From contig CAYHLZ010000001.1 of NCBI GenBank assembly GCA_964357635.1, positions 133,166 to 197,165 of the forward strand: a stretch of DNA of 64,000 nucleotides, in the 5' to 3' direction. Numbering within the stretch: the stretch's first letter is position 1; each line of letters starts with the position of its first letter. Below, piece by piece: positions 1 through 51,647 of this stretch. The stretch comes from an uncultured Candidatus Saccharibacteria bacterium (GTDB lineage Bacteria; Patescibacteriota; Minisyncoccia; Phycocordibacterales; Zambryskibacteraceae). Both the position numbers and the translations under genes were made by a program. The notes under the pieces are model-generated. The model made no database searches. It saw only the letters and a list, made by a program, of their open reading frames with translations, and was not told the origin of the DNA.

Positions 1-1105
1 TTCTATAAAGGAGCATAAACAACAGGTATACCGTCTAGTTTGGGCGACAGTAAGCCTTGCTGTTCTCCTTACGTCGTTTCTATTTGCTAATTTCTTTGGT
101 ACTTACTTTGTAGCTTATGAAATAAGTCAGCTTGGTCACGTTGCGGTACCTATTTTCGCCGCTCTTCTCGCTTATATAACCATAAGATTTGACACACTAG
201 AGTCTAGAATTTTGCTGATTGACGTGCTGACTTCAAGCCTTACTATTTTAATATTCTCCCTACTGTTTATCAGAAATGAAGATGCTCAAACCGTGGTTGT
301 CCTTATATCTTTGGCCCTATCAATACCTACGGCTTACACGCTAATGTCGGGTATTAGAAAAGAGGTTCATTCAAGGCAACGTATAGAACAACTAGCAGGA
401 GATCTCAGGCGGGCAAACGAGGGGCAGTCTAACCTGATACACATTATTAACCACCAGATTAAGGGTTACTTGGCGAAAGCGAGAAACATCTTCTCCGAGC
501 TTTTGACCGAGCCGTCCTACGGACCGATGCCAGAGACAGCCAAACCGATGCTTGATGAAGGACTCAAGTCTCTCACTGAGGGAGTGGACTTCGTCAAAGA
601 TTTTCTTGATTCTGCAAACATAGAAAAAGGTTCTTTTGCCTACAGTATTGAGCCTCTAGACTTTAAGGCAATGGTGCTAGATGCGGCGGAGAAACAAAAA
701 GGTTTGGCAAAAGAGAGAGGACTCTCCTTTGAAGTTAAGATTGCCGATGGTGACTACAAAACCAAAGGAGACAAGACCCAGCTCGGACAAGCAACCAGAA
801 ATATGATTGATAACTCTATCCGCTACACTCCTAAAGGCTCTGTTACGGTAAACTTGGCTCGCGCTGGTAACAAAATTTTGTTCTCGGTAAAAGACACTGG
901 AGTTGGTCTCTCGGAGGAACTCAAGCCGAAGCTCTTCACCCAAGGGGGCAGAGCAGAGAACTCAATTAAAATTAATATAAACTCAACCGGCTTCGGTCTC
1001 TCGTTTGTTAAGTCTGTGGCAGAAGGACACAAGGGGCGTGTCTGGGCAGAGTCTGCGGGGGTAAACCAAGGCTCCACTTTCTATATGGAGTTGCCGGTCG
1101 TTTAA
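1..1105 (+). CDS. Sensor histidine kinase, 5'-partial (frame is open back to the window start)
   Basis: The C-terminal HATPase_c motifs 'DNSIRYTPKGSVTVNL...VKDTGVGLSEE...GFGLSFVKS' and the H-box region 'HQIKGYLAKARN' are present. An N-terminal TM segment precedes them. The reading frame of the 212..1105 ORF has no stop between position 2 and 212. Confidence 0.8.
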   Translation, partial: SIKEHKQQVYRLVWATVSLAVLLTSFLFANFFGTYFVAYEISQLGHVAVPIFAALLAYITIRFDTLESRILLIDVLTSSLTILIFSLLFIRNEDAQTVVVLISLALSIPTAYTLMSGIRKEVHSRQRIEQLAGDLRRANEGQSNLIHIINHQIKGYLAKARNIFSELLTEPSYGPMPETAKPMLDEGLKSLTEGVDFVKDFLDSANIEKGSFAYSIEPLDFKAMVLDAAEKQKGLAKERGLSFEVKIADGDYKTKGDKTQLGQATRNMIDNSIRYTPKGSVTVNLARAGNKILFSVKDTGVGLSEELKPKLFTQGGRAENSIKININSTGFGLSFVKSVAEGHKGRVWAESAGVNQGSTFYMELPVV

Positions 1106-6663: not shown

Positions 6664-8463
6664 ATGCAAATTAAGAATGAGAATAAGACAGAAAAAGCTG
6701 AAATCAAGAGAGGGATAAGGGCTATCTGGCGACACATTAGTCCTTTTAAGAACCAACTCACTTTTCTAGTTGCCTTAGGTCTAATTTCCGCTATGGCCAA
6801 TGGCGCAGTTCCATATGTGACTGGGCGCTTTTTCGATGCTCTTGTGGATCTATCGCAAAACGAAGGAAGTGTGGGGTTAGGAAATCTTCCTGTTTGGGTC
6901 ATCTTTCTTGCTATTTGGACCATCATACAACTCATAGCAAACAATATTGACTGGGTAATGGATAGACTACGTCGAAACGTTGATGACAAGGTTCATTTCA
7001 ACATACTAGCTGAAGGATTTGTTCATCTTCTACAACTACCTCTTAGTTATCATAAAAATGTTCACATAAACGGAGAATTACAAAAGATTTCTCATGCGGG
7101 TTGGAGGATATCGGCGATATTGAGGACAATTATTCAAATTGCCCCTCAATTTCTTAGTATAGTTATTGGTATTGTTTTGGCTGCGAGTATAAACGTAATG
7201 CTTGCCGGTGTTCTTTTGGCTGGGGTAGTTCTCTACACTCTTCTACTGGTTAGGATTTTACTACCAATAGCATCCATAGACTTTGCTGCACATAAAGTTT
7301 GGAATGAAAGTTGGGATGATTCGGCTGCTGCGATACAGCAGATAGAGAGCGTAAAACAAGCCACCGCAGAACCTTACGAATCAAAGAGAGTAAAAAATTC
7401 TTTTCTTGAGAAAACATATTTCTTGTGGCAAAAGATTGAAAAGAATTGGAGCAATGTCAGTTTTTTCCAAAGAACGATAGTGTTTTTCACTCAACTAACG
7501 GTATTTATTTTTTCAGTTAAATTAATTTCAACAGGGGTAATAAGTGTTGGAGAACTTGTGGCACTTAATGGCTATGCCCTTATGTTTTTTGGTCCATTTG
7601 TTCAGCTCGGCTATAGCTGGCAAACGATTCAGAATGGTATCACCAGTGCTACACGAGCTGAAGATATCTTTGAGACTGAGCCAGAAAAATATACTCCGAT
7701 AAACGCCGTTAAGTTAGGTAAGATAAGGGGTGAGGTAAATTTTAAAAATGTTTCATTTAAATATACCAAGGAACAACCAGAGATATTAAAAAGTATCAAT
7801 TTTACAGTCAGCCCTGGTGAAATTGTTGCCCTGGTTGGTGAGTCAGGGGTTGGTAAAAGCACAAGTATTTCCTTGATTTCTGGTTACTACTTTCCTACAA
7901 ATGGGGAAGTACTTATAGACGGATTGAATGTTAAAAATCTTAATTTACATGATTTACGAAAACAAATAGGAGTAGTGCCTCAAGAAGTAGCCTTGTTTAA
8001 TGACACAATTGAAACAAACATTCGTTATGGCTCTTTTGATGCAAATGAGGAAAATATTAAAAGGGTTGTCAAAGAGGTTCACTTAGATGAATTTATTGCT
8101 ACTCTGCCGGAAGGTTACAAAACTCTGGTGGGTGAGAGAGGTATCAAACTTTCTGTTGGGCAGAAGCAGAGAATTTCTATAGCTCGAGCAATGTTACGCA
8201 AACCAGCAATTCTTATACTAGATGAACCAACCAGTGCCCTAGATGCACAAACTGAACGGACCGTTACAGAAGCACTTGAAAGATTGATGCAAGATAGAAC
8301 AACTTTTATCATCGCTCACCGTCTCTCTACTGTCCGCAAGGCAGATAAAATTTTGGTTTTCCAGAAAGGAGAAATTGTAGAAATAGGCACGCACGACAAA
8401 CTCATTAAGAAAAAGGGTGGAGTTTATCGCCATCTCTATGAGTATCAAGTGGGCTTACACTAA
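6664..8463 (+). CDS. ABC exporter, fused permease plus ATPase (MsbA/Lipid A-export-like)
   Basis: Six-TM N-terminal half. Walker A 'GESGVGKST', ABC signature 'LSVGQKQRISIARA' and Walker B 'ILILDEPTSALD'. Confidence 0.88.
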   Translation: MQIKNENKTEKAEIKRGIRAIWRHISPFKNQLTFLVALGLISAMANGAVPYVTGRFFDALVDLSQNEGSVGLGNLPVWVIFLAIWTIIQLIANNIDWVMDRLRRNVDDKVHFNILAEGFVHLLQLPLSYHKNVHINGELQKISHAGWRISAILRTIIQIAPQFLSIVIGIVLAASINVMLAGVLLAGVVLYTLLLVRILLPIASIDFAAHKVWNESWDDSAAAIQQIESVKQATAEPYESKRVKNSFLEKTYFLWQKIEKNWSNVSFFQRTIVFFTQLTVFIFSVKLISTGVISVGELVALNGYALMFFGPFVQLGYSWQTIQNGITSATRAEDIFETEPEKYTPINAVKLGKIRGEVNFKNVSFKYTKEQPEILKSINFTVSPGEIVALVGESGVGKSTSISLISGYYFPTNGEVLIDGLNVKNLNLHDLRKQIGVVPQEVALFNDTIETNIRYGSFDANEENIKRVVKEVHLDEFIATLPEGYKTLVGERGIKLSVGQKQRISIARAMLRKPAILILDEPTSALDAQTERTVTEALERLMQDRTTFIIAHRLSTVRKADKILVFQKGEIVEIGTHDKLIKKKGGVYRHLYEYQVGLH

Positions 8464-32190: not shown

Positions 32191-32445
32191 TTAAGCCTTC
32201 AGGAAGCCTTCTTTTCTCAAGATTTTGACCTTGGCGAGGTGTCCCGACCTATACCCGCCTATATCACCATTTGAGCGAATGACCCTGTGGCAGGGCACTT
32301 TTGGGCTAGTGTTTTTATTCAAAATATTTCCTACTGCCCGTGAGGCCCCTGGATTCCCCGCCCTCTTTGCCACTTCTTTGTATGTCAAAACTTTTCCCTT
32401 CGGGATCTTTGCTACCACCGCATAAACTTTTTCTTTAAAAGTCAT
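32191..32445 (-). CDS. ogt: Methylated-DNA-protein-cysteine methyltransferase, catalytic/DNA-binding domain only (85 aa)
   Basis: 'PCHRVIRSNGDIGGY' active-site Cys motif. The start is taken at 'MTFKEKVYAVV'. The longer ORF start at 32541 would run through a terminator hairpin. Confidence 0.85.
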   Translation of the reverse strand: MTFKEKVYAVVAKIPKGKVLTYKEVAKRAGNPGASRAVGNILNKNTSPKVPCHRVIRSNGDIGGYRSGHLAKVKILRKEGFLKA

Positions 32446-32466
32446 TGGTTTATATATTACACGATA

Positions 32467-32506
32467 TGTATAAAATAAAAGACGCCGTACCCGAAGGTCG
32501 TGCGTC
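32467..32506 (-). terminator. Intrinsic terminator on the minus strand: GACGCACGACCTTCGGGTACGGCGTC followed by TTTTATTTTAT
   Basis: Stem-loop with a UUCG-type loop followed by a U-rich tract when read on the minus strand. It sits at the end of a 650-bp ORF-free region and upstream of ogt. Confidence 0.7.
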
Positions 32507-33000
32507 TGGCTAGCTAGGCGATCAGGGAGTGGAGATTCCACAACGATTTTGTTTGACTGGCGGTGAAGCCTGCCATTCTAGTCGTTGAGGAGGTTCCCCA
32601 ACTACCCTGATGCCCTGCACCCGTTGGCCCTAGTTTTTTAGTCTATGACCAAAGATACCCTTTTTTACCGTTGACACCGGAATGTATGTCTTTGGATCCC
32701 AAGGAATGGGGAATCAACTCTTCTAAGCCATCTGTTTAGTTTTGCAACCAATCGCGGTTATCCTACCCGCGACCCAGGGGCATTTGCCTTTTGTGAGAGT
32801 CTCTTAGGATTAGAGACTATTCTCACTGAGACAATTTTTCGTTGAGTCAATGATACGAGTGACTGCTCGTGTTTAGGATACTCCTTTCGGAGATCCTTTG
32901 AAGGAAGATCGCTCTCCCAATGATTACTGGTATTGAAACCAGAAACAAGGTATTCCTCCCTGTCCCATAACCATTACAGTCTTTAGTACACAGATCTAAC
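32507..33000 (-). ncRNA. Unassigned structured ncRNA candidate (possibly more than one RNA); identity not established
   Basis: There is no ORF of 60 aa or more on either strand across 32446..33113. The segment is packed with stable local hairpins, e.g. GTGAGAGTCTC...GAGACTATTCTCAC, GGATACTCC-TTTC-GGAGATCC and CGCGG...CCGCG. On the minus strand a candidate promoter TTGACA-N16-TAGTAT lies at ~33035..33006. The minus-strand terminator is at 32467..32506. Confidence 0.4.
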
Positions 33001-33113
33001 AGGAAATACTATCAGTTTAACTTTTAGTGTCAATTGACTTTTATCGTTTTTGTGGACTATTTTGTGGATAAATTGTTGATAAAGACCAAAATTTTCGCTA
33101 TTCTTGGCTTCAC

Positions 33114-33185
33114 GGCCCTATCGTCTATCGGCTAGGACGGAGCCTTCTCAAGGCTCAAAGCGGGGTTCGATTCCCCGTAGGGTCA
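33114..33185 (+). tRNA. tRNA-Glu (anticodon CTC), 72 nt, CCA not encoded
   Basis: Cloverleaf: acceptor GGCCCTA/TAGGGTC; anticodon stem GAGCC/GGCTC with loop TTCTCAA; T-arm CGGGG-TTCGATT-CCCCG. Confidence 0.85.
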
Positions 33186-33320
33186 CAAATTGACTTCCCT
33201 ATTTTATTGTCATTGACACGGGCGCCTTTTAAATTCCGAAAAAATTTTGTCCACAATTTTTTCCTAAATTGGGAGATTTTTAAATTAAGATTAAGAAAGA
33301 CTTTTGTGAGGGCTACTTTT

Positions 33321-33650
33321 ATGCGAAAGCGACGAAGACGAGTACAGGTAACCTGTCTCTGTTCGGCTTACGAGTTTCCCCACCGTATCGGTGGAGGACG
33401 CTGTTCTGGAGGTGCTTGGGCCAGAAGCTACATGGAAACTGTCGGCGAGTGTTGCAAGCACTGCGTTGCCAACCGAGGTGCCTCCGAGTGTGACGTGGCA
33501 GATGGTGCCGAAACCATTGCACACTGCGAAGGCTTCAGAGACCACCTTCTCTACCAACCGACCATTCGTCTCCCTGTCAGGGTGGAGACACTTATGGAGA
33601 GACGTCTCTTCTACTACGAGTATGCGGAGCTTGTCTTTGACCGGGCGTAA
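33321..33650 (+). CDS. Hypothetical basic Cys-rich small protein (109 aa) in a GC-rich segment; coding status uncertain (ncRNA is the alternative)
   Basis: ATG preceded by GAGGG at -13. 'MRKRRRRVQVTCLCS...GECCKHCVANRGASECDV...HCEGF'. The stop codon is embedded in a perfect terminator hairpin. Three overlapping ORFs here reflect high local GC content. Confidence 0.35.
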   Translation: MRKRRRRVQVTCLCSAYEFPHRIGGGRCSGGAWARSYMETVGECCKHCVANRGASECDVADGAETIAHCEGFRDHLLYQPTIRLPVRVETLMERRLFYYEYAELVFDRA

Positions 33651-33683
33651 CATGAAGAATGTTACGCCCGACTTCTTTTTGTT
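33643..33683 (+). terminator. Intrinsic terminator GGGCGTAACATgaagaATGTTACGCCC followed by GACTTCTTTTTGTT
   Basis: Perfect 11-bp stem plus a T-tract. Confidence 0.85.
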
Positions 33684-33699
33684 AAGTTATACTTAGCAA

Positions 33700-50663: not shown

Positions 50664-51647
50664 ATGCATGACTTCATCGCCATAGGAGATATGGTTACCG
50701 ATGCGTTTATCAAACTCAAGGATGCTAGTGTCCACTGTGACATTAACGAGGAGCACTGCACTATCACCATGGCTTTCGGTGAAAAGATTCCCTACGAATC
50801 AGTAGAGGTAGTTAGGGCGGTTGGTAACAGTGCCAATGCCGCTGTTTCTGCTTCAAGACTTGGGCTCTCTTCTGCCCTCGTCTCTAACATAGGAGATGAT
50901 GAAAACGGTAAGGATTGTCTCAAAAGTTTAAAGAAAGATAACGTTGGAACCGAATTTATCTCTATTCATAAAGGAAAAAAGACTAACTACCACTACGTTT
51001 TATGGTATGAGAGCGATAGAACTATTTTAATTAAACACGAAGAATATGATTATCACCTGCCAGAAATTAGTGAACCCAAATGGCTCTATTTGTCTTCTCT
51101 GGGAGATAAAACCTTGAACTTCCACCAAGAAATAATTGAGTGGGTTAAAAAACATCCAAATGTTTCTCTTGCATTCCAACCAGGAACTTTTCAGATAAAA
51201 CTGGGAGCAAGTGTTCTTAAGGATATTTATACTAGAGCAAACATATTCTTCTGTAATGTAGGTGAGGCAGAAAAAATTCTTGGACTTACAACACTGGGAG
51301 TAGAAGAGCTCTTGAAACGCATGCATGCTCTTGGTCCAAAGATTGTTGTTATTACCGATGGCCCCAAAGGCGCATACGCTTTTGATGGAGAAAAAATGTG
51401 GTTTCTCCCTGAATATCCGACACTGGATGCTCCTTTTGAGAGAACTGGGGCGGGTGATGCTTTTGCCTCCACCACTGTAGTTTCATTAGCTTTAGGAAAA
51501 GACCTTACAGAAGCACTTCGTTGGGGTGCAGTTAACGCCATGTCGGTAGTGAGCCAAGTGGGTGCACAAAAAGGCCTTTTAAAACTCGAAGATATTGAGA
51601 AATATCTTAAGGATGCTCCAGACTTTAAGGCAAAGTTACTTAAATAA
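50664..51647 (+). CDS. PfkB-family carbohydrate kinase (ribokinase/fructokinase/phosphofructokinase-B-like)
   Basis: N-terminal GG motif and the C-terminal 'GAGDAFAS' anion-hole motif. Divergently adjacent to fba. Confidence 0.8.
   Translation: MHDFIAIGDMVTDAFIKLKDASVHCDINEEHCTITMAFGEKIPYESVEVVRAVGNSANAAVSASRLGLSSALVSNIGDDENGKDCLKSLKKDNVGTEFISIHKGKKTNYHYVLWYESDRTILIKHEEYDYHLPEISEPKWLYLSSLGDKTLNFHQEIIEWVKKHPNVSLAFQPGTFQIKLGASVLKDIYTRANIFFCNVGEAEKILGLTTLGVEELLKRMHALGPKIVVITDGPKGAYAFDGEKMWFLPEYPTLDAPFERTGAGDAFASTTVVSLALGKDLTEALRWGAVNAMSVVSQVGAQKGLLKLEDIEKYLKDAPDFKAKLLK

Follow-up and report, generated by a model that had tools for sequence, protein, structure and literature searches.

A probable new family of large structured non-coding RNA between an ogt-like gene and tRNA-Glu in a narrow clade of Patescibacteria

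We analysed a 64,000-nt stretch of DNA (the window) from an uncultured Candidatus Saccharibacteria bacterium (assembly GCA_964357635.1, contig CAYHLZ010000001.1) and found that the space between an ogt-like gene and a tRNA-Glu gene, positions 32446-33113, harbours on the minus strand a predicted non-coding RNA (ncRNA) that is a member of no named family and probably constitutes a new family of stand-alone large structured ncRNAs. The features expected of a stand-alone ncRNA gene can be read from the sequence: a promoter, an intrinsic terminator, no coding potential, and a covarying structure. Comparison with relatives shows, at the level of sequence, an RNA under selection for its structure and a putative self-contained transcription unit. 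We consider it probable that the locus is a gene, with transcription of its own, for a stable structured RNA of several domains that belongs to an undescribed family, is confined to a narrow clade of Paceibacteria- or Minisyncoccia-like Patescibacteria, and serves an accessory, trans-acting role. The original prediction for this locus, a minus-strand structured ncRNA outside the named families, is thereby borne out by the transcription signals, the covariation, and the lack of an Rfam match.

In a greedy map of open reading frames (ORFs), the window is 93% coding with a median gap of 13 nt, and its largest ORF-free gap measures 665 nt (32542-33206); another seeming gap, at 50771-51226, proved to be an artefact of the choice of ORFs. 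Positions 32446-33113 form the core of this gap, and from the ogt-like coding sequence to tRNA-Glu the longest ORF has 33 aa, in agreement with the ORF-free block that had been proposed. A GTG-extended ORF of 116 aa that reaches into the segment (32191-32541) was rejected as an artefact, the start of the ogt-like gene being the ATG at 32445-32443. The only ORF that looked conserved, beginning GTG-MQGIRV..., is shifted in frame by a 1-nt deletion between the window and a relative carrying a short form of the RNA (L002), with the compensating change 21 nt further on; its conservation therefore lies at the nucleotide level and not in the reading frame. Protein coding was rejected, as the small ORFs are not conserved in frame. 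A pseudogene, the finding that according to the original prediction would speak against it, was looked for with neighbour proteins and none was found; the tblastn search with 4205 neighbour ORFs matched nothing but the non-coding DNA of the homologs, in several frames. Every part of the block occurs only once in the 64-kb window, which speaks against a repeat, a template of a diversity-generating retroelement, or a mobile element, and no match pointing to a phage origin was found among 50,697 phage records or in IMG/VR.

Relatives of the locus were found by a genome scan with the protein sequence of the flanking class II ribonucleotide reductase (RNR), followed by exact-protein look-ups of RNR and ogt-like homologs, nhmmer searches, and covariance models. 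Loci are labelled L001 to L097; the eight homologous ones come from related Patescibacteria metagenome-assembled genomes (MAGs) and metagenome contigs, and ±10 kb was inspected in each relative. The best relatives of the RNR lie in MAGs labelled Patescibacteria, Minisyncoccia, or Paceibacterota. The 3' module of the RNA is present in eight distinct loci and the long form in six. A full-length homolog with the same synteny (RNR, ogt, RNA, tRNA-Glu) was found in L001, further full-length homologs in L080/81, L082, and L083/84/85, and more divergent full-length ones in L086/87/88; the copy in L030 is partial, cut by the contig end, and L002 has a short form of about 175 nt that consists of the 3' part only. 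The gene upstream of the RNA varies between tRNA-Glu, OmdA/DUF2200, and DUF817, and a tRNA is the neighbour in three of the six contexts. A covariance model built from eight sequences (R2) revealed no further copies in 545 kb of related loci of the candidate phyla radiation (CPR), nor in L090-97; the sole match of a metagenome DNA-pattern scan, in L027, a coding contig of high GC content, was put down to chance, and viral scans yielded no true homolog. Since these scans brought up no copies beyond the clade, the family is either narrow or located elsewhere in other genomes.

The signals predicted to delimit the RNA are as follows. A sigma-70-type promoter, the best sigma-70 match of the region, was identified on the minus strand at 33006..33033, with the -35 element TTGACA (33028-33033) inside the palindrome GTCAATTGAC, a 16-nt spacer, and the -10 element TAGTAT (33006-33011) preceded by TG; it scores 10 out of 12. 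All six long forms keep these hexamers, as TTGAC(A/G)-N16/17-TA(G/A)(T/A)(A/C)T, and the sequence of the spacer varies freely. At the other end, an intrinsic terminator is seen in the sequence at 32471..32506 of the same strand: its bulged G+C stem with a UUCG loop reads GACGC(A)CGACC-UUCG-GGU(A)CGGCGUC and is followed by the U-tract UUUUAUUUU. Hairpin and U-tract recur in all homologs with compensatory changes at pairs 175/200 and 177/198, and it is because of the bulges in the stem that a simple terminator scanner overlooked this element. The minus-strand promoter and terminator put forward originally are thus both confirmed, the first by its conservation in every full-length copy and the second by covariation across the homologs. 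Together they predict a transcript that starts at about 32999, ends at about 32471, and comprises the whole structured ncRNA (32471..32999, minus strand, ~530 nt).

The promoter is preceded by some 50 nt of conserved A-rich sequence (33040..33085, minus strand) with phased (A/T)CCACAAAA and CAACAA repeats. This block is kept in L080, L082, L083, and L086, also where the upstream neighbour is not tRNA-Glu. It probably serves the RNA promoter as an UP-element, as curved DNA, or as the site of a regulator. It encloses a perfect DnaA-box-like sequence, TTATCCACA, at 33063-33071. The window as a whole shows no enrichment of DnaA boxes (7 observed versus 6.9 expected) and no switch of GC skew was seen at the locus, which indicates that the region is not oriC; the TTATCCACA and CCACAAAA-repeat region could be a site for DnaA or another regulator, or curved UP-like DNA.

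To assess the structure, covariation was counted in an alignment of five full-length sequences, folded with RNAalifold, and, for the 3' part, in an alignment of seven (A6). The full-length consensus comprises 146 pairs, with 93.5% of the cells paired. Both partners have changed in 25 of the 146 pairs, a number reached by none of 500 shuffled alignments (12.3±2.3), and sliding the partners by one to three columns left only 2-7 such pairs. In the 3' part, 15 of the 45 pairs have changed on both sides, compared with 8.2±1.8 in shuffles (0/500) and 1-3 after sliding. The compensatory changes anticipated in the original prediction are thus present, judged by RNAalifold together with shuffle and slide controls, and the three hairpins it cited all exist and all covary in the homologs. 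The strand can be told as well: 95 cells hold G-U pairs, and the same pairs read on the opposite strand are 81.6% canonical instead of 93.5%. Against shuffled controls, the z-score of the minimum free energy is -6.1 on the minus strand and -3.8 on the plus strand, and the minus-strand orientation agrees with that of promoter and terminator. A brute-force covariation search for additional long-range or pseudoknot helices gave none that was convincing.

The 5' region of the RNA, of about 370 nt, contains two domains. Domain I (32852..32990, minus strand, as are all parts of the RNA described here) is a multi-helix junction formed by helices 2-8 of the covariation model, with the invariant strands GUACUAAAGACUGUAAU and CACGAGCAGUC. 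It holds hairpin H5 (32942-32966; loop AGGAAUA), hairpin H7 (32903-32918), whose GNRA cap is GCGA here and GCAA in relatives, hairpin H8 (32876-32896), capped by GAAA and with four of its six pairs changed on both sides, and one further small hairpin. In domain II (32713..32851), the long-range helices H9 and H10 surround three elements: a two-tier hairpin (32793-32826, GUGAGA.../...UCUCAC) with the conserved loop AAUCC(U)AA, which has the same fold in five homologs with different stem sequences; a CGCGG/CCGCG hairpin (~32752-32773) that covaries in the homologs; and a GGC-AAAU-GCC element. Two pairs of H10 have changed on both sides, and H12 shows a GC<->AU change. Three hairpins (32629..32712) lead over from the 5' region to the 3' module, namely CCCA...UGGG, GACAU...GUGUC within CC...GG, and a linker hairpin (~32629-32651) that reads UAG/CUA, CUG/CAG, CAG/CUG, or GUUG/CAAC in different homologs. 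All five pairs of this linker have changed on both sides (helix 1 of the 3' alignment), and helix 16 of the full-length alignment agrees.

The 3' module begins with the 13-nt motif GCCAACGGGUGCA (32616..32628), which is mostly unpaired and identical in all eight homologs. The CGGGU within this 13-mer can pair with an invariant AUCUG at the 5' end (32991-32995) in all long forms; the only change in this pairing is a U-G to C-G in L086 (pair 46/445), with no other covariation. The motif is followed by an irregular hairpin of about 110 nt, the 3' rod (32513..32618), which has a variable tip and the conserved internal loops GAACC/AAUAA and CUAGAU/ACAAAA and forms the conserved core of the family. 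Covariance models of the 3' module (R1 and R2) score 48-151 bits in the eight distinct loci, and this module, at about 90%, is more conserved than the 5' region. Between rod and terminator lies a spacer of 0 to ~20 nt that varies in length and sequence. The RNA as a whole contains about 20 helices, and these, together with the two GNRA-capped hairpins of the 5' region, suggest a compact tertiary fold. Its architecture is also modular: in L002 nothing of it is left but 13-mer, rod, and terminator, and in L086 domain I is remodelled and the GNRA hairpin relocated.

We then compared the RNA with known families. The whole window was searched against Rfam 15 at gathering thresholds, and three copies of the RNA, those of the window, L083, and L001, at E<=10, a limit that corresponds to roughly 13 bits. 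The first search returned three tRNAs only, and the second nothing above chance level. The families brought up in the original prediction (RNase P RNA, tmRNA, 6S RNA, signal recognition particle (SRP) RNA, and introns) gave no match at E<=10 in any of the three copies. For tmRNA, which is marked by a tRNA-like domain and a tag reading frame, ARAGORN likewise found none in the window. For 6S RNA, the internal loops of the consensus rod measure 6x6 nt or less. For bacterial SRP RNA, whose helix 8 has conserved apical loops (a GNAR tetraloop and symmetric and asymmetric loops), the search gave only a chance-level Fungi_SRP fragment of 15.8 bits in L083, and the rod tip is the most variable part of the rod. 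For group I and II introns, which interrupt a host gene and have a conserved catalytic core, no domain-V-like hairpin was seen, and the RNA, equipped with a promoter and a terminator, is situated between genes. ROOL, GOLLD, OLE, raiA, and HEARO were not matched in the three copies either.

As to function, we propose that transcription would start at about 32999, from the sigma-70-type promoter behind the phased A-rich block, and would end at about 32471 at the covarying terminator. The 3' module, 13-mer plus rod, would be the functional core, since no other part is as conserved and since one relative keeps it alone. The RNA may act in trans, either with the conserved internal loops as the binding site of a protein or by base-pairing of the invariant 13-mer, and the 5' region may serve as an accessory or regulatory scaffold whose AUCUG:CGGGU pairing could mask the 13-mer. 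The role would be accessory and not essential, because the RNA is missing from this locus in close relatives: ogt and tRNA-Glu lie about 100 nt apart, with no RNA between them, in L028 (86%, the closest relative by RNR). More tentatively, and with appreciable doubt, the RNA can be pictured as a large tertiary-structured class of ultra-small episymbionts, a ribozyme or the core of a ribonucleoprotein (RNP) or of an assembly, similar in kind to ROOL, GOLLD, and OLE and unrelated to them.

Several observations weigh against a trans-acting RNA gene of this kind. The transcript ends are predictions from sequence signals, and the analysis yielded no partner protein, target, or activity; the complement of the 13-mer is not enriched in the 64-kb window, where it occurs at chance level. 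The sample consists of 5-6 full-length sequences and eight of the 3' module, all from one narrow clade whose flanking RNR is 79-89% identical, and because the sequences are so closely related the shuffle statistics are inflated. The long-range helices H1, H3, and H7 and most of H9 are invariant, which places them beyond the reach of covariation. The short form of L002 could be a decaying remnant and not a minimal functional unit. Finally, the ogt-like gene lies downstream of the RNA and co-oriented with it in all eight loci, an arrangement that a role in cis would also fit.

Such a role is the main rival, albeit one that we judge unlikely. The RNA would then be a cis-acting leader or attenuator of the ogt-like gene that senses a ligand, a protein, alkylation, or replication stress, with the terminator gating read-through. 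The shared orientation persists despite the changing upstream neighbours, the terminator ends 25-45 nt before the ogt start codon, and in L089, from a different lineage, an unrelated structured RNA of about 200 nt with promoter and terminator occupies the same position. However, the covarying terminator is strong, no anti-terminator pairing is conserved, the spacer between rod and terminator is variable, and the ogt-like genes of the window and the homologs seem to be provided with promoters of their own. They carry a -10 box, TGTAATAT or TATAAT, 7-9 nt before the ATG (TGTAATAT at 8 nt in the window) and no Shine-Dalgarno sequence, features that suggest mRNAs with no leader or hardly any. Moreover, the ogt orthologues of close relatives have no leader of this kind, L028 and L094-97 carry ogt but not the RNA, in L002 one membrane-protein gene separates the RNA from the ogt-like gene, and 530 nt with about 20 helices is far above the size of known riboswitch leaders. 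The adjacency itself can be explained by common descent within a narrow clade.

Two observations concern the space in front of ogt-like genes in other loci. The RNA of L089, a Paceibacteria-like contig (3700-3990, plus strand), is preceded by TTGACG-N18-TACAAT, is followed by a terminator, has no Rfam match, and gives a z-score of -6.6 on the ogt strand and -1.6 on the other. In L090, a 767-nt GC-rich non-coding stretch (229-995, plus strand) without an Rfam match at E<=1 stands before another ogt-like gene. The space upstream of ogt thus seems to collect non-coding inserts in several lineages.

The locus might alternatively encode two RNAs, as the original prediction had allowed: a 5' RNA of about 370 nt and a 3' RNA of about 150 nt (13-mer, rod, and terminator) that are processed apart or of which the second has its own start. 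We give this arrangement a low probability. It is in line with L002, where the 3' module stands alone, with the invariant 13-mer at its very 5' end and a TATAAA box about 5 nt before that; with the higher conservation of the 3' module relative to the 5' region; and with L086, in which domain I is remodelled as the 3' module persists. On the other hand, the junction of the long forms has no conserved internal promoter, AUCUG can pair with CGGGU in all long forms (with the one consistent change noted above), and conservation extends to only one promoter and one terminator. The RNA may behave as two modules.

A non-functional remnant, whether a decayed gene, a mobile-element scar, or chance structure in a variable spot beside a tRNA gene, is very unlikely. 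Presence, absence, and length of the RNA are polymorphic among close relatives, and what is inserted in the spacer between ogt and tRNA-Glu differs from lineage to lineage. In L002, positions 7896-7915 repeat part of the 3' end of tRNA-Glu in direct orientation (TGACCCTACGGAGA), about 160 nt beyond the tRNA-Glu gene itself (8072-8143, minus strand). In sequence, the TGACCCTACGGAGA copy looks like an att-type scar of integration in a variable region. Decay is contradicted by the compensatory changes in many helices, the conserved promoter hexamers and terminator, the lack of protein similarity in any frame, and the absence of repeats elsewhere in the window and of a phage match.

The weakest alternative is a highly diverged RNase P RNA, the lead given in the original prediction, which we reject, leaving for it only a very slight chance because the genome was inspected over 64 kb. 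In 10 of 35 circularised CPR genomes, RNase P RNAs are reported to have been missed at standard thresholds, and matches in the range of 5-13 bits were used to find them (PMC8172020). Because such RNAs can fall below thresholds, the lead was tested on the defining features of RNase P RNA and not on Rfam alone. The RNA resembles bacterial RNase P RNA (RF00010/RF00011) in the length of its 5' region, its GNRA-capped helices and multi-junction architecture, its place beside a tRNA gene, and an ACAGA-GGCUUA-like string. The latter had been compared to the CR-V motif, and ACAGAUGGCUUAG is literally present (32724-32736 in plus-strand numbering). It is not conserved, however: it becomes CCAGAAGGC-UAG or CCAUGAGGC-UAG in close relatives, and as the 3' strand of H10 (ACAGAUGGC) it belongs to a local covarying helix, pairing with UUGUCUnnG about 100 nt upstream with two pairs changed on both sides. 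The P4 partner suggested for it, AGUCCA (33053-33058), lies upstream of the -35 element and outside the predicted transcript. Within the transcript there is no CR-I (GGAAAGUCC-like), and hence no P4 with CR-V (ACAGAAnnCGGCUUA). No RNase P model (RF00010, RF00011, RF00373) matches any of the three homologs searched at E<=10, and the RNA was not found in the 545 kb of related CPR sequence. L002 has lost the 5' region, and L028 has no trace of the RNA at this locus; in close relatives, of which ±10 kb each was inspected, the RNA thus seems dispensable or truncated.

The genes that flank the RNA in the window are as follows. The ogt-like coding sequence of the MGMT family (32191..32445, minus strand) encodes 84 aa with the PCHRV motif and matches Pfam PF01035 with E=1.8e-29. 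On the other side, tRNA-Glu(CUC) (33114-33186, plus strand), found by both ARAGORN and Rfam, is the divergent neighbour of the ncRNA. Beyond it, the GC-rich (55%) region 33187-33699 resembled a second non-coding block and proved to be a small protein gene (33321-33650, plus strand, with a terminator extending to ~33690). It encodes a conserved Cys-rich protein of 109 aa (MRKRRRRVQVTCLC...CCKHC...) that has no Pfam match and whose changes relative to L001 and L002 fall mainly on third codon positions. In three relatives, a protein of about 600-617 aa without a Pfam domain is encoded between RNR and the ogt-like gene (L029, 6951-8756; L082, 1443-3296; L083, 2144-3973).

Genomes of CPR/Patescibacteria measure about 1 Mb and have almost no spare DNA. 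In such a small and compact genome a conserved non-coding gene of about 530 nt whose promoter looks strong is costly, and therefore presumably useful. To our knowledge, very few lineage-specific structured RNAs have been described for this group, and none was found in a literature search or in Rfam 15. Should the RNA prove to be a ribozyme or a compact RNP core, it would add a new class of large RNAs; should it be tied to the ogt-like gene, it would represent an unusual RNA-based control of alkylation repair. The covariance model and the eight loci provide the starting material for building the family. The analysis also shows that the locus does not supply the RNase P RNA that has at times been reported as 'missing' from CPR genomes.

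Among known systems, the large 'ornate' bacterial ncRNAs ROOL, GOLLD, OLE, and raiA offer the closest parallel in kind: like them, the RNA is long (~530 nt), has many covarying helices and GNRA-capped hairpins, is patchily distributed, and has a tRNA neighbour in half of its contexts. Unlike them, it matches none of their models, shows neither prophage context nor phage match, occurs in one Patescibacteria clade, and possesses a detachable 3' rod. This 3' module, taken by itself, recalls rods of the 6S or Ms1 type, being a 110-150-nt rod with internal loops, its own terminator, and a strong-looking promoter. The rod of 6S RNA, about 180 nt long, opens into a large central bubble; here the largest loop is about 6x6 nt, no 6S model matches, and the conserved part is the basal half and not the flanks of a bubble. 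With riboswitch and attenuator leaders the RNA shares its co-oriented position just upstream of a gene family, with the terminator a short distance from the start codon; it differs in being about five times the typical size, in lacking an overlap of terminator and anti-terminator, in its variable spacer, and in a downstream gene that possesses a -10 element of its own and that relatives carry in the absence of the RNA. Finally, the form in L002 resembles seed-bearing trans-acting small RNAs in its order of parts, an invariant unpaired 13-nt segment at the start, then a stable hairpin, then a Rho-independent terminator, but differs from them in that no complementarity to a target was found in the 64-kb window, in its long conserved scaffold hairpin, and in the 370-nt 5' extension that most copies of the family carry.

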